Shown here one piece after another: positions 40,591-61,384 of a stretch of 64,000 nt of DNA; positions within the stretch are counted from its first letter, which is position 1, and each line of letters opens with the position of its first letter. Position numbers and translations under genes: made by a program. The notes below the pieces were generated by a model. The model did no database searches. It saw only the letters and a list, made by a program, of their open reading frames with translations, and had not been told where the DNA came from. The stretch covers positions 124,001-188,000 of the forward strand of contig NZ_JAJQXW010000001.1 of NCBI RefSeq assembly GCF_021246445.1. Reading direction: 5' to 3'. This DNA comes from Rhabdothermincola salaria. GTDB lineage: Bacteria > Actinomycetota > Acidimicrobiia > Acidimicrobiales > Acidimicrobilacustridaceae.

Positions 40591-42483
40591 TCAGTCGCGT
40601 AGGTCGCGCAGGAAGGCCTCCGCCTCGGCGCGCTGGCGGGTGCGGCGCATCGGCGGCAGGGCGTTGACGATGTCCCAGCGGTAGCTGGCGTTGGTGGCCA
40701 TGCGGGGGTCGAACACGGCCACCACCCCGCGATCGGTGGCCCCCCGGATGAGGCGGCCCGCCCCCTGGGCCAACAAGGTGGCGGCCCGGGGGAGGTCGAC
40801 GACGCGGAAGGCGTCGGCTCTGGCCCGCTCGCGCCGGGCCTGGAGGAGGGGGTCGTCGGGGCGGGGGAAGGGGAGGCGGTCGATGGTGACCAGGCTCAAC
40901 GTCTCCCCGGGGACGTCGACCCCCTGCCAGAAGCCCATGGTGGCGAACAGGCAGGCCTCGGGTTCAGCGGTGAACCGGGCCACGAGGGCCGCCTTGGGCA
41001 GGTCGTCCTGGGCGAGGATCTCGACGTCGAGGCGGGGGCGCAGCGCCTCGACCGCGGCGTGCAGGGCCCGGTAGCTGGTGAACAGGGCCATGGTGCGGCC
41101 ACCGGCGGCCTCGATGAGCGCCTCGAGCTCGTCGTGCACCCGGTCGTCGAACGTCGCCGAACGGGGGTCGGGCAGGTGGGCCGAGCAGTACAGCAGCGCC
41201 TGGTGCTCGTAGTCGAAGGGGCTGCCCACGTCGACGACGGTGAAGCCGGCGTCGGGCAGGCCCACCCGCTCCGGGAGGGTGGCGGGCAGGGTGGCGCTGG
41301 TGAGCACGGCCGTGGTGGTGGACCACAGCGACTCGCGCAGCAGCTCGGCGACGTCGACGGGTGCGACCCGCAGGACGGGGTTCTCGGGCGGGCCCTCCAC
41401 CCAGGCCACCTCGCCCGGACGGACCTCGGCCACCGCATCGAGGTCGTCGACCAGCCCGGTGGCCGCCTTCATCGCCCGCTGCTTGCGCGCCCCCACGTCG
41501 CCGGGGCCGTCCTCGGCCACGCCGCGCAGCGCGGCCATCACCAGGTCCATGCGGTTCCGGGCGAGATCGCGAACCACGGCCGCGTCGCCGTCCAGGCGCC
41601 CCCGGAGCCGGCGCCCTCGCTCCTCGACGAGGGCGCTCTTCCAGCGATCGCCCAGCTCGTCGAGGCCGTCGACCATCTCGCGGTCGTCGATGATGGCCCC
41701 CACCGATCGGGCCAGGGCGACGAAGCGGCCGCCGGTGATCTCGAGGCCGGCGGTGGCCGCCACCGTGTCCTCGAGCTGGTGGGCCTCGTCGACCACGAGC
41801 ACGTCGTGCTCGGGCAGCACCGCCCCGCCCGTGGCCAGGTGCAGCCCGTAGAGGTGGGTGTTCACCACCACCACGTCGGCGGCGGCCGCCGCCCGCCGGG
41901 CTCGCTCGGCGAAGCACTCGTCGCCCTTGGGGCAGTGGCCCGCGCCCGGGCACTCGCGCGGACCGACGCTCACCGCCGACCAGGCCCGCACCGAGGGTTC
42001 ACGGTCGAGCTCGGCCCGATCGCCGGATTCGGTGGCGGCGGCCCACGCCACCAGCGCCGCCAGCTCCTCGCGCGGCGGGCGCGGGCCGACGTCGAGGGCC
42101 AGCTGGTCCTCCGAGGCGAGCTCCCGGATGCGCTGGAGGCACACGTAGTTGGAGCGCCCCTTGAGCACCGCCCACTCGACCGGTCGGTCGAGGTGCTCAC
42201 CGAGGAAGGGCAGGTCCTTGTCGGCCAGCTGGTCCTGGAGCGCCTTGGTGGCGGTGGTGACCACGACCTTGCGGCCCGAGAGGACCGCCGGAACGAGGTA
42301 GGCGAACGTCTTGCCGGTGCCGGTGCCGGCCTGGACCACCAAGTGGCGCTCGTCGGCGATGGCGGCGGCCACCGCTTCGGCCATGGCGACCTGCCCGGGT
42401 CGGGGCTCGCCGGCGGGGAGGGCGTCGGTGATCGAGGCCAACGCCGCTCTCGTGGCGCGGGAGAGGCGGTCTGCGGGGGCCAT
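40591..42483 (-). CDS. dinG: DinG family ATP-dependent DNA helicase
   Basis: RPGQ, QAGTGTGKT, KGRSNYVC, Fe-S Cys cluster, DEAH, TSAT, GVDVPG, QGAGRLIR. Confidence 0.93.
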   Translation of the reverse strand: MAPADRLSRATRAALASITDALPAGEPRPGQVAMAEAVAAAIADERHLVVQAGTGTGKTFAYLVPAVLSGRKVVVTTATKALQDQLADKDLPFLGEHLDRPVEWAVLKGRSNYVCLQRIRELASEDQLALDVGPRPPREELAALVAWAAATESGDRAELDREPSVRAWSAVSVGPRECPGAGHCPKGDECFAERARRAAAAADVVVVNTHLYGLHLATGGAVLPEHDVLVVDEAHQLEDTVAATAGLEITGGRFVALARSVGAIIDDREMVDGLDELGDRWKSALVEERGRRLRGRLDGDAAVVRDLARNRMDLVMAALRGVAEDGPGDVGARKQRAMKAATGLVDDLDAVAEVRPGEVAWVEGPPENPVLRVAPVDVAELLRESLWSTTTAVLTSATLPATLPERVGLPDAGFTVVDVGSPFDYEHQALLYCSAHLPDPRSATFDDRVHDELEALIEAAGGRTMALFTSYRALHAAVEALRPRLDVEILAQDDLPKAALVARFTAEPEACLFATMGFWQGVDVPGETLSLVTIDRLPFPRPDDPLLQARRERARADAFRVVDLPRAATLLAQGAGRLIRGATDRGVVAVFDPRMATNASYRWDIVNALPPMRRTRQRAEAEAFLRDLRD

Positions 42484-58080: not shown

Positions 58081-59428
58081 AGCTGGCGGCGTGCCATCTC
58101 CCGTGATGGGCATCCCCGACCCCGTCCTCCGAGCGCTCGTCGACCGGGCGGCCGGGCGCGACGAGCCGGTGCTCACGGTCGACGAGGTCATGGGCGACCT
58201 GGCCGCGTACGGCCCCACACCCGAGCTTCTCGAGTCGGTTCGCGCCGCGCTGGGCGAGCGTGGTGTGACGGTCGACGACAGCGTGCCCGACGTCGAGGCC
58301 CTCACCGACGAGGCCCTCTTGGGCGCGCCGCTGGTGCCCTGCGCCGACGAGAAGGTGGAGGTCATCGTCGCAGCCGACGCCCACGACGACGACACCGATG
58401 ACGAGGACGACCTGGTCGCGCGGCGGACCAAGGCCCGCTACCGCTCGGTCGGGTCGCGCGACGCGGTGCGCATGGGGGCCCAGCTCGGTGTCGGAGGCTC
58501 CTCGGACCCGGTGCGCATGTACCTCAAGGAGATCGGGCGGGTCTCGCTGCTCACGGGCCAGGAAGAGGTCGAACTGGCCCAGATCATCGAGCGGGGGACG
58601 GCGGCCGCCGAACGGCTGGCCGACCTCAGCGCATCGGGGGAGCTGGCGGCGGTCGATCCGCTCGAGAAGCGCCGGCTCACCCGTCTCGTCCGCAAAGGCG
58701 AGGATGCCAAGGCGGAGCTCACCCAGGCCAACCTGCGCCTGGTCGTCTCCATCGCCAAGCGCTATGTGGGGCGGGGCATGTTGATGCTCGACCTCATCCA
58801 GGAGGGCAACCTCGGCCTCATGCGGGCCGTCGAGAAGTTCGACTGGACCAAGGGGTTCAAGTTCTCGACCTATGCGACATGGTGGATCCGCCAGGCCATC
58901 ACCAGGGCGATCGCCGATCAGGCCCGCACTATCCGCATCCCGGTCCACATGGTCGAGTCGATCAACAAGGTGCACCGTGTGCAGCGCCAGATGGTCCAGG
59001 ACCTCGAGCGGGAGCCGACCATCGAAGAGCTCGCCGCCAAGGTCGACATGACTCCCGCCCGGGTGCGCGAGATCATGCGCATCTCCCAGGACCCGCTCTC
59101 GCTCGACTCGCCGGTCGGCGAAGAGGACGACTCCAACCTGGCCGACTTCATCGAGGACCAGAGCGCCGAGGCCCCGGCCGAGATGGCCGCCCGCATGATG
59201 CTGAACACCGCGGTCGAGGAGGCGCTGAGCGACCTCAACGACCGAGAGAAGGCGGTCGTGCGCATGCGCTTCGGTCTCGACGACGGCCAGGCGCGCACGC
59301 TCGAGGAGGTCGGTCGCGAGTTCGGGGTCACCCGTGAACGCATCCGCCAGATCGAGTCCAAGACGCTGGCCAAGCTGCGCCACCCCCAGCACAGCCAGAA
59401 GCTCCGCGACTACCTCGACGGCGAGTAG
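58073..59428 (+). CDS. rpoD: RNA polymerase principal-type sigma factor
   Basis: [72 protein letters not shown]. Confidence 0.95.
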
Positions 59429-59529
59429 GGCTGCGTCCCACGCCGGGCTGGTGCGGCTTGGTTCCGGGCTCGTCCAGGTCGTCCCGGTATCCGCGCACAC
59501 AAGTCGTCGCGAGCGGGTAGACCTGCGTC

Positions 59530-59853
59530 ATGAGCTTCAAGACCGGATTCATCGTCGGGGCGGCCGTCGGCTATTACTTCGGGGCCAAGGCCGGCCGCGA
59601 TCGCTACGAGCAGATCGATCGCCAGCTGGAGAAGGTGCGGTCGCACCCGAAGTACCAGGTGGCCACCGAGAAGGTGGGCGAGGGCCTCGACCAGGTCAAG
59701 GGTCTGGCTCGCGACAAGGCCTCGGGGGCCTTCAACGGTGGTGACGAGCCCAGCTGGGAGCCGGGCCTCGAGTTCAACCCCGACTACCGCCCGACCGAGG
59801 AGGAGATCCGCGAGGACGTCTTCGGTCGCGAGCCCCAAGCCGGACCGACCTGA
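59530..59853 (+). CDS. YtxH-like small membrane-anchored protein
   Basis: FKTGFIVGAAVGYYFGAKAGRDRYEQI pattern. Confidence 0.75.
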   Translation: MSFKTGFIVGAAVGYYFGAKAGRDRYEQIDRQLEKVRSHPKYQVATEKVGEGLDQVKGLARDKASGAFNGGDEPSWEPGLEFNPDYRPTEEEIREDVFGREPQAGPT

Positions 59854-59989
59854 TCCGGGGGCCGGCCCCGGGTCGGTGAACTGGGCCGATCTCTCCTGCC
59901 GACCGGGCCCACCGGCGACCAGAGCCCCGATTCCGGGCTCTCCGCAGCCGCAGACGGTGGATGTCCCACCCCCTCGCCAGACTCGGCTG

Positions 59990-60622
59990 ATGGGGTATCG
60001 AGGCAAGGTCGTCGAACGGGAGCGTGCCCGCGAGCTGCGGGCCCAGGCGTGGACGCTGCAGGAGATCGCCGATGAGCTCGGGGTGGGCAAGGGCTCCGTG
60101 TCGGTGTGGGTGCGCGACGTCGAGTTCGTACCGAAGCCCCGATCAACGGCCCGCAAGCGGGGACCGAACGCCCTGCAACGACGCAAGGCCGCCGAGATCG
60201 AGGAGTTGTCGGACGAGGGCCGCCGCCGCATCGGCACCCTGAGCGAGCGCGACCTCCTGATCGCCGGTGCCGCGCTCTACGCGGGGGAGGGCGCCAAGAC
60301 CGACGGCGCCGTGAAGTTGGCCAACAGCGATCCCCGGATGATCGGCATCTTCTGCCAGTGGCTGCGGACCTTCTTCGAGGTCGACGAGTCCCGCCTCCGC
60401 GTGAGCCTCTATCTGCATCGAGGACTCGACCTCGAAGAGGCCATCACCTTCTGGTCGTCGCTGACCTCGATCCCGGCCAGCCAGTTCACAAAGCCGTATC
60501 GGGCGGTTCCCGATCCCTCCATCCGCCGGTCGAAGCACCCCATGGGGTGCCCAGCGATCGTCTACTCCTGCTCGAGGACACACCGGGCCGTGATGGGCCT
60601 GGTCGAGGCACTGCTATCGTGA
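59990..60622 (+). CDS. HTH plus single LAGLIDADG-like domain protein (tRNA-adjacent)
   Basis: RELRAQAWTLQEIADELGVGKGSVSVWVR HTH; GAALYAGEG followed by VKLANSDPRMI..F..WL. Confidence 0.7.
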   Translation: MGYRGKVVERERARELRAQAWTLQEIADELGVGKGSVSVWVRDVEFVPKPRSTARKRGPNALQRRKAAEIEELSDEGRRRIGTLSERDLLIAGAALYAGEGAKTDGAVKLANSDPRMIGIFCQWLRTFFEVDESRLRVSLYLHRGLDLEEAITFWSSLTSIPASQFTKPYRAVPDPSIRRSKHPMGCPAIVYSCSRTHRAVMGLVEALLS

Positions 60623-60631
60623 AGGCTCCCT

Positions 60632-60704
60632 TCCGGGGTAGCTCAGTTGGCAGAGCGCTCGGCTGTTAACCGAATTGTCGTGGGTTCGAGCCCCACCCCC
60701 GGAG
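60632..60704 (+). tRNA. tRNA-Asn (GTT)
   Basis: Acceptor TCCGGGG/CCCCGGA, D arm GCTC/GAGC, anticodon loop CT-GTT-AA, T arm GTGGG-TTCGAGC-CCCAC; CCA not encoded in register. Confidence 0.97.
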
Positions 60705-60709
60705 CACCA

Positions 60710-60740
60710 GATGCCCCGTGGCCAGCGGCCTCGGGGCATC
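60710..60740 (+). terminator. Hairpin after tRNA-Asn
   Basis: GATGCCCCG-TGGCC-agc-GGCCT-CGGGGCATC. Confidence 0.6.
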
Positions 60741-60833
60741 GTCGCGTCCGGGGTCGAGCGGCCCGGCAGTCGTCGGGTGCCACGTGTGCGCGACCGTCGG
60801 TTCCGCGCCGAGTCCCTAGTGTGTGCCGTCTCC

Positions 60834-60906
<73 letters not shown>

Positions 60907-60958
60907 CCGCCAGGACGCGTCGCTCGCTCCGCTCCGTGAGTCCCGCAGGTCCCTGGGC

Positions 60959-61384
60959 TCAGCGACCGGGGACGGCGACCGTGACCGTCTCGCCACCCCA
61001 CCCGTTGACCAGATCTCGCGCCTGCACCGTCACCGAGGCCACCCCGTCGGGGATCTCCAACCCGCTGAGGCTGCGGGTGAAGGGCTGCTCGTCGGCGTGG
61101 TGGTGGGTGAGCTCGCGCACCCCCAGCTCCTCGTCGTCGGGGCTCAGCACCCGAAAAGCGTCGGCGTAGCGCTCCTCGCTGTCGTAGGGCGACGAGATGG
61201 TGGCCGCCACGCTGAAGCGGTCACCAGCGGCCGTGACCTCGGCCTCGATCACGTCGGGGTGGACCTGCTCGGCAGGGGACAGCATCGTCGTCCGCTCGGC
61301 GTCGTCGCCGCTCGAACACCCCAGCGCCATCAGGGTGACGATGATCATGGGCACCGCTCGTCGTGGTCGCAGTCGTCGTCGCAC
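60959..61384 (-). CDS. Putative lipoprotein with His cluster (possibly metal-binding)
   Basis: Arg-rich N-terminus + LMALG/C lipobox; YAD...RELTHHHADEQPFTRSL. Confidence 0.75.
   Translation of the reverse strand: MRRRLRPRRAVPMIIVTLMALGCSSGDDAERTTMLSPAEQVHPDVIEAEVTAAGDRFSVAATISSPYDSEERYADAFRVLSPDDEELGVRELTHHHADEQPFTRSLSGLEIPDGVASVTVQARDLVNGWGGETVTVAVPGR

Follow-up and report, generated by a model that had tools for sequence, protein, structure and literature searches.

SegB of phage T4 is a free-standing homing endonuclease of the GIY-YIG type, which is encoded in a transfer RNA (tRNA) cluster and has its main site inside a tRNA-Asn gene (PMC2330249). Among enzymes of the LAGLIDADG type, residue E117 of I-DmoI is essential for catalysis and K120 stabilizes the transition state, whereas WhiA has lost the equivalents of both residues and cannot cut DNA (PMC3384342). 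The arrangement in which an intron without an open reading frame (ORF) is accompanied by an endonuclease gene lying outside it has been termed collaborative or trans homing (PMC3984707). The gene considered here, referred to as the helix-turn-helix (HTH)-LAGLIDADG-like gene, is located in a stretch of 64,000 nt (the window) of Rhabdothermincola salaria contig NZ_JAJQXW010000001.1 (assembly GCF_021246445.1, positions 124,001-188,000); all coordinates given below are those of the window.

The gene belongs to a large unnamed family, each subfamily of which is docked 5' of one particular tRNA gene. The evidence leans towards its product being a free-standing, single-motif LAGLIDADG-type homing endonuclease with an N-terminal HTH, which targets the tRNA-Asn locus and has here been inherited mostly vertically, with occasional loss and replacement. 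The initial annotation of the window had posed a choice between a homing element at sites upstream of tRNA genes and a domesticated regulator of tRNA genes. That pair of readings is supported by the present analysis, in which none of the three outcomes named there as refuting it was encountered, and the selfish-nuclease branch is favoured, though not decisively, because both catalytic positions are invariant, unlike in WhiA. The same annotation had described a 210-aa ORF with an N-terminal HTH, both of which were found in place, and had set the end of the ORF 9 bp before tRNA-Asn; the distance holds, but the end coordinate given there, 60704, falls one base short of the tRNA end. The gene, its predicted parts and the tRNA on which it is docked are as follows.

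59990..60622, + strand: HTH-LAGLIDADG-like gene, from ATG at 59990 to TGA at 60620-60622 (210 aa plus stop)
60011..60118, + strand: N-terminal helix-turn-helix, residues 8-43 (Pfam HTH_23, E 3e-4, under the gathering score)
60170..60232, + strand: long linker helix, residues 61-81, joining the HTH to the nuclease-like domain (secondary structure of the model)
60236..60619, + strand: LAGLIDADG-like domain, residues 83-210, of helix-strand-strand-helix-strand-strand-helix order (domain model, VIA and I-DmoI profile match)
60245..60298, + strand: motif helix, residues 86-103, with E100 at 60287-60289 and K103 at 60296-60298; predicted dimer interface and active site
60623..60631, + strand: gap of 9 bp between stop codon and tRNA (end of the ORF and ARAGORN start of the tRNA)
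60632..60705, + strand: tRNA-Asn(GTT), the docking partner (ARAGORN and own-genome search)

The ORF list allows an in-frame upstream extension as far as GTG at 59738; despite this open frame, position 59990 is regarded as the conserved start because homologs begin at MGYRGK. The gene is present in one copy in its genome, and the tRNA-Asn at 60632-60705 is the sole full tRNA-Asn gene of the assembly.

Docking of the family on tRNA genes

The initial annotation had suggested tabulating the distance of homologs to tRNA genes, and the association that emerges is very strong and family-wide. The loci were gathered with two alignments (A4 and A6), and the sample is biased toward those two clades. 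Overall, 196 of the 208 loci hit by tblastn (six of them duplicates) have a tRNA gene within -10 to +130 nt of the match end, the remaining 12 being accounted for by contig ends, truncated copies or early-ending matches. Among close relatives, tRNA-Asn(GTT) lies directly 3' of the gene at 14 of 16 loci, while the other two are cut by contig ends. The named Actinomycetota species genomes have tRNA-Asn as the partner at 60 of 60 loci, on the same strand in 58 (one of which was called 'tRNA-???') and inverted in 2.

The reading frame itself commonly runs into the tRNA. The survey comprised 130 loci, free of duplicates, at which the match is full-length and tRNA-Asn is on the same strand, and the frame enters the tRNA in 120 of them; it is closed by the TAG of tRNA nt 8-10 in 80 and by the TAA of the anticodon loop in 14, and the rest of the 120 read further. 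A stop codon ahead of the tRNA is found in just 10 of these 130 close relatives, including the window's gene with its 9-bp gap, which is therefore unusual for the family. Gene and tRNA would presumably be transcribed together, and because the stop codon lies inside the tRNA in most relatives, processing of the co-transcript by RNase P would yield a message that lacks a stop codon, and protein levels would stay low.

A profile scan of the Actinomycetota returned matches in 71 of 401 genomes (59 of the 368 of high quality) and in 51 of 249 genera; the 401-genome tallies include five unpublished genomes (G186, G374, G120, G306 and G356). The nearest hits in the phylum precede tRNA-Asn, a more distant subfamily precedes tRNA-Gln(TTG) and another precedes tRNA-Lys(CTT), one of the Lys loci (L217) coming from the unpublished G186. 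Among twenty further hits, 18 have a tRNA gene directly downstream (11 Lys, 3 Gln, 2 Thr(GGT), 1 Pro(TGG) and 1 inverted Met). In a FastTree phylogeny of 174 members the tRNA-Gln group forms one clade with a support of 96, and the partner labels change 7 times on the tree, compared with 42 times when shuffled, a difference that shows clustering only, since kin share labels.

The docking extends to viral contigs. Scanning of IMG/VR with alignment A4 yielded six relatives (L240-L245; contigs of 25-499 kb; 25-39% identity), all six of which have tRNA genes at their loci, with the nearest downstream tRNA at 57-341 nt; the Patescibacteria alignment A6 yielded none. One of the viral-contig relatives sits between tRNA-Val and tRNA-Lys within an array of 21 tRNAs.

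At some loci the partner tRNA is located just downstream but on the opposite strand (L053, L065 and L197 in Actinomycetota, L145 of the Patescibacteria type, and L226), an orientation suggesting that the tRNA has been locally inverted with respect to the gene. In some Actinomycetota genomes (G122, G136, the unpublished G186, G204, G217 and G243) the family profile is matched as many as three times. In G122 and G136 two copies reside at different tRNA genes, Gln and Lys, and two of the three matches in G204 are adjacent pieces of one interrupted copy.

Protein family and the LAGLIDADG-like domain

Searches for homologs at E<=1e-3 retrieved 3973 proteins from a 90%-clustered collection, the best 120 of the 3973 being 67-81% identical to the query, and 3919 representatives from a 50%-clustered library, of which 1841 remain at E<=1e-10. 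In their source records the homologs are annotated as hypothetical or as 'transcriptional regulator with XRE-family HTH domain', and the protein atlas assigned unnamed clusters only (scores 0.87-0.88) from Actinomycetota and Minisyncoccota. No description of an HTH-LAGLIDADG-like family was found in the literature covered by the search, subscription journals and supplements lying outside it. Pfam, NCBIfam, PADLOC and PHROGs matched the HTH part of the protein only; HTH_23 was matched by 27 of 31 aligned family members, and VIA comparison of model residues 1-45 returned the HTH domains of resolvase, DeoR, TrpR and IstA with Z values of 5-6.8.

The C-terminal half of the translated ORF contains the motif AALYAGEGAK followed by VKLANSDPRMI..F..WL, in which the initial annotation had recognized a LAGLIDADG-like helix with an acidic catalytic position. 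When the family profile was compared with the PDB (177,635 sequences, E<=0.01), I-DmoI was the sole match, with E values of 1.6e-4 for the full-length profile and 3.3e-4 for the domain profile; a phmmer search of the PDB with the single sequence gave nothing useful. The profile alignment sets ...LYAGEGAK... on ...LYVAEGDK... of I-DmoI, and thereby E100 on the catalytic E117 and K103 on K120. Position 100 is acidic in all 174 intact members across all subfamilies (163 E and 11 D), and Y97, G101, K103, N112, H143, W155 and G186 are each kept in 174 of 174.

The full-length AlphaFold2 model, built with a 31-row alignment, has a predicted local distance difference test (pLDDT) score of 92.1 and consists of an HTH at residues 4-40, a helix at residues 61-81 and the C-terminal domain, which reached a pLDDT of 93.1 when modelled separately. 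The helix-strand-strand-helix-strand-strand-helix order that forms the core of LAGLIDADG enzymes is seen in both models. When the domain model was aligned by VIA-align with 48,161 chains, ranks 1-9 were all occupied by LAGLIDADG domains (Z 7.2-5.5, root-mean-square deviation (rmsd) 2.8-3.6 A over 76-87 residues). These were the TliVMA intein endonuclease domain (7.2), I-DmoI (6.7), the PI-type 2cw8 (6.2), E-DreI (6.0), WhiA (6.0, 5.6 and 5.5), I-Vdi141I (5.7) and I-Tsp061I (5.6), and the full-length model gave the same LAGLIDADG picture. Kinship with OmpA/YfiB-like domains was also considered and was rejected, as the Foldseek matches on which it was based (template modelling (TM) score 0.27-0.45, rmsd 6-8 A) are taken to reflect a shared alpha/beta arrangement.

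Residues 83-210 are also predicted to form a homodimer, with a score of 0.72 compared with 0.00 for the best control, at least 96% agreement of contacts between runs and a pLDDT of at least 89; the mark applied to this score is reached by 20 of 30 known pairs and by 1 of 23 single chains. The predicted interface is the motif helix (residues 87-100, with contacts 91:91 and 95:95), and the positive outcome may reflect likeness to solved LAGLIDADG dimers. Monomeric LAGLIDADG enzymes usually arise from homodimeric ones by tandem duplication. Proteins of 504-560 aa with two successive units of HTH and domain occur in the family (P0204, P0205, P0211 and P0235, two of them Actinomadura records) and are the fused form of the presumed homodimer. 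On the strength of the profile alignment and the models, the C-terminal half is classed as a divergent domain of the LAGLIDADG type, so far unannotated, in which the catalytic pair is preserved.

Genomic setting, alleles and inheritance

The gene occupies a variable segment within a housekeeping region, for which three further features are relevant.

59530..59853, + strand: YtxH-like/GvpT-like small ORF, the upstream neighbour (Pfam YtxH E 2.5e-4 and NCBIfam GvpT E 4.6e-4, both under the cut-off)
59854..59989, + strand: spacer of 136 bp 5' of the ORF, presumed location of the promoter
60834..60908, + strand: tRNA-Met(CAT), the downstream half of a tRNA pair in many relatives (ARAGORN)

The YtxH-like ORF forms the left border of the variable segment and is kept beside rpoD in relatives, those without the gene included. 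The match is present in 16 of 41 relatives and in 10 of the 25 genomes of high quality among them; the named relatives of the locus are Acidimicrobiales and other metagenome-assembled genomes of Actinomycetota. The initial annotation had proposed that relatives be compared for an empty site in the interval from the YtxH-like gene to tRNA-Asn, and alleles of three kinds (empty, remnant and deleted) were encountered there. Within the genus of the window, the gene is intact in G000, carries a common 1-nt insertion in G001 and G002, is deleted with a remnant in G003 and is missing from G004. In G003 (99% complete) 142 bp separate the YtxH-like gene from tRNA-Asn (L020:1766-1907), and the last ~55 bp of the gene have been kept, so its 3' end may carry signals for tRNA expression. 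At the same rpoD-YtxH-tRNA-Asn site elsewhere, G013 has lost residues ~31-97, G015 retains three short remnants by the tRNA, and the site is empty in G019 and G012. The locus thus shows the pattern by which homing elements are recognized, a presence/absence polymorphism confined to a single genomic position and accompanied by decaying copies.

The insertion in G001 and G002 is an extra G after a TTC codon near residue 166 (L010:~1995-2005 and L011:~1995-2005). The sequence still appears constrained on both of its sides, with a ratio of nonsynonymous to synonymous substitution rates (dN/dS) of 0.15 over the 166 codons before it and mostly synonymous differences in the shifted frame after it; conceivable explanations are a programmed +1 frameshift, splitting of the gene or an assembly error common to both genomes.

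The tRNA genes and their flanks have different affinities. The tRNA-Asn and tRNA-Met of the window are 98.6% and 100% identical, respectively, to those of G010, a member of another genus, compared with 87.8% and 88-92% within their own genus, whereas the flanks follow the genus (DnaG, 76-81% within the genus and 73% to G010; downstream ORF, 60-63% and 55%). This contrast in sequence identity fits co-conversion of a tract comprising the gene and the tRNA.

The wider neighbourhood is a housekeeping one, as the initial annotation had described it, with PPDK, DnaG, RpoD and the weak YtxH-like ORF upstream and two unnamed ORFs, an inositol monophosphatase and a NUDIX protein downstream; no integrase or transposase families were matched among the neighbouring proteins scanned. 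The spacer at 59854..59989 shows no blastn similarity to relatives, and a scan of 59400-61000 for the sigma-70 consensus gave 0 sites, a result that is uninformative for a high-G+C actinobacterium. Among the public sequencing runs searched for words of 59500-60950, none contained half or more of them, the best share being 0.26. Far from the gene, at 40692-40780 on the - strand, ARAGORN reported a 'tRNA-???' of 89 nt whose anticodon has two bases (cc); this tRNA-like element is odd or degenerate.

Proposed homing and its alternatives

As a homing endonuclease, the protein would bind as a dimer and, in genomes without the gene, cut DNA within the conserved tRNA locus or right at it, and repair from an occupied copy would carry the gene across, often together with adjacent tRNA sequence.

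Several observations weigh against this interpretation. Every VIA Z value is below 8, the range in which the tool warns of a mere common arrangement; Foldseek searches of the PDB with the full and the domain model returned no LAGLIDADG match and placed OmpA-like domains first; and the 25 families listed, out of 51 matched by the 31 members at E<=0.1, include none of the Pfam LAGLIDADG models (LAGLIDADG_1/2/3 and Hom_end). With these caveats, the fold proposed in the initial annotation is supported by the I-DmoI profile match and the nine best VIA matches, and the profile-level sequence match is considered the stronger evidence, the VIA values being middling and not decisive alone. At 2 of the 20 further loci the tRNA lies on the 5' side, 80-97 nt upstream, and the window protein (P0001) had no tblastn hit in phage or plasmid collections. 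The gene tree of family-level relatives is roughly congruent with the rpoD tree, so inheritance among them looks mostly vertical; discordance is confined to the pairing of G000 with G010, which has a value of 90 in the Shimodaira-Hasegawa-like approximate likelihood ratio test (SH-aLRT), is not starred and involves fast-evolving copies. Pairwise dN/dS values of 0.15-0.39 are as compatible with a role for the host as with an active selfish gene. Finally, occupied genomes keep an intact, intron-less tRNA-Asn, for which no feature protecting it from self-cleavage was found.

An allele of the tRNA-Asn anticodon stem was examined as a possible marker of cleavage immunity, since the window and G010 share one allele and the gene-less or altered genomes of the same genus another. 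The idea was dropped because the intact gene of G016 adjoins the same tRNA-Asn allele as is found in gene-less genomes.

Both the congruent trees and the low dN/dS, together with retention of the gene at 55-81% identity over many Actinomycetota, also agree with a domesticated DNA-binding protein, in which the HTH and the LAGLIDADG dimer would bind the promoter-leader region of tRNA-Asn/tRNA-Met and (auto)regulate the unit without cutting, in the manner of WhiA or of the I-TevI autorepressor. Homing endonucleases can double as repressors (PMC3384342), the setting is free of mobile-element genes, the XRE-family annotation of homologs is that of a transcriptional regulator, and sparing of the ~55 bp ahead of the tRNA in G003 is as expected if tRNA expression signals reside there. 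Such a regulator is nevertheless judged unlikely, as all 174 members retain E/D100 and K103, both of which WhiA has lost (PMC3384342), as the gene is dispensable and often decayed or absent even inside one genus, and as there is no known rationale for dedicated regulators of Asn, Gln, Lys, Thr and Pro tRNA genes and of phage tRNA clusters.

The mostly vertical inheritance and the frequent remnants, deletions and empty sites, as well as copies with internal stops or frameshifts across the phylum, could alternatively mark a former homing endonuclease that has become immobile and is being slowly lost, serving neither host nor element in this genome at present. This is improbable for the copy in the window, which is full-length and keeps every invariant residue, and the pairwise dN/dS values are well below 1; even the G001 and G002 copies with the 1-nt insertion have mostly synonymous changes on either side of it.

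Relatives in Patescibacteria

Scanning with one distant subgroup yielded 80 metagenome loci, and one member of this subgroup (P0261) is a 'Patescibacteria group bacterium' record; the family is found at tRNA-Asn in both Actinomycetota and Patescibacteria. Among the 47 loci of the Patescibacteria clade, tRNA-Asn is interrupted in 35 and intron-less in 7, while the sequence ends too early in 5. The split tRNA-Asn(GTT) genes (L110:3191-3464 and about 34 others of L110-L155 and L174) start 2-38 nt after the gene and contain an insert of 185-282 nt without an ORF, and the gene lies outside the insert, a layout of the kind termed collaborative or trans homing (PMC3984707). Of the 11 split loci submitted to Rfam, 8 gave a group I intron hit at the gathering score; the other three, L113, L116 and L138, are split according to ARAGORN and gave no Rfam group I hit at that score. 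In the 19 loci in which the exon borders were caught by pattern, the 5' exon ends in ...CTGT and the 3' exon starts with TAA after G, and the intron therefore separates anticodon positions 35 and 36.

Some organelle introns encode LAGLIDADG proteins that are able to act as maturases, and the inserts beside the gene, group I introns among them, would suit a maturase-like protein that assists in splicing or processing the precursor of the neighbouring tRNA, or some other tRNA-directed factor, yet such a role at the RNA level is very improbable given that all Actinomycetota partners, the window's included, are intron-less, that seven Patescibacteria loci pair the gene with an intron-less tRNA-Asn, and that the invariant acidic and lysine pair is a signature of DNA cleavage.

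A published account mentions, with no details, that some tRNAs of the candidate phyla radiation (CPR) carry group I introns (PMC8172020). This was the nearest statement in the literature searched, in which no bacterial tRNA-Asn group I intron was named, subscription journals and supplements being outside the search.

Implications

The interpretation as a homing endonuclease of the tRNA-Asn locus may be extended, tentatively and with less confidence, to an undescribed class of tRNA-gene-directed LAGLIDADG homing endonucleases, in which each subfamily would recognize a single tRNA gene, gene and tRNA would travel together as a cassette through bacteria and large phages, and expression would be throttled by RNase P processing of the co-transcript. 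The stem-loop arms of tRNA would offer such enzymes natural near-palindromes suited to a homodimer, and most copies would borrow their stop codon from the tRNA. If so, these endonucleases would be natural halfway stages in the origin of mobile introns, and new programmable meganuclease scaffolds could be drawn from them.

Should the proteins cut DNA, they would constitute a large unnamed LAGLIDADG branch with about 3,900 representatives at E<=1e-3 (50%-identity library). The lifestyle of their genes, free-standing and attached 5' to one specific tRNA gene, extends over Actinomycetota, Patescibacteria and viral contigs and is undescribed in the literature searched. They would also provide a chromosomal bacterial counterpart to phage T4 SegB, natural material on how endonuclease genes and ORF-less group I introns come together, and many new compact, homodimeric, HTH-assisted nuclease scaffolds with conserved, predictable targets. 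The annotation of thousands of genes would then change from 'XRE-family regulator' or 'hypothetical protein'.

Comparison with known systems

The C-terminal domain has the same order of core elements as LAGLIDADG enzymes such as I-DmoI, I-CreI, I-MsoI, I-Vdi141I, I-Tsp061I and intein endonuclease domains. As in the second motif of I-DmoI, the motif helix has an acidic residue at its end and G-x-K directly after it, matching E117 and K120. The family also resembles these enzymes in its predicted dimerization through the motif helices and in the occurrence of single-domain and tandem two-domain forms. It differs from them in the weakness of the match (no Pfam LAGLIDADG model, structural Z of 7.2 or lower) and in having an N-terminal HTH and a long linker helix; unlike the LAGLIDADG enzymes of introns and inteins, it is encoded by a free-standing gene that abuts or reads into the 5' end of a tRNA. 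A known bacterial homing endonuclease has a tRNA gene as its target, as is proposed here, but it is encoded inside the intron and belongs to a nuclease family other than the LAGLIDADG-like one described here.

Known cases of collaborative homing pairs come from phages and from other nuclease families (PMC3984707). The tRNA-Asn of the window has no intron, unlike such a pair, and the likeness seen in Patescibacteria rests on the adjacency of gene and intron.

Like WhiA/DUF199, the protein combines a LAGLIDADG fold with an HTH and occurs in Actinomycetota, and the structural matches between the two have Z values of 5.5-6.3. WhiA/DUF199 contains two LAGLIDADG domains and a C-terminal HTH and is distributed throughout Gram-positive bacteria; the present protein has one domain, an N-terminal HTH and a preserved catalytic pair, and its gene is patchy, being detected in 71 of the 401 Actinomycetota genomes.

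The lifestyle of the family can be compared with that of SegB, which is also free-standing among tRNA genes, as are the six distant viral-contig relatives that lie in or beside such genes; the preferred site of SegB relies on a conserved tRNA motif, and SegB spreads by co-conversion of flanking DNA (PMC2330249). The catalytic fold is GIY-YIG in SegB and LAGLIDADG here, and SegB sites are located at the 3' (T-arm) end of the tRNA (PMC2330249), whereas this family is fixed at the 5' end, with subfamilies tied to single tRNA species. In contrast to SegB, the HTH-LAGLIDADG-like family is chromosomal in bacteria.

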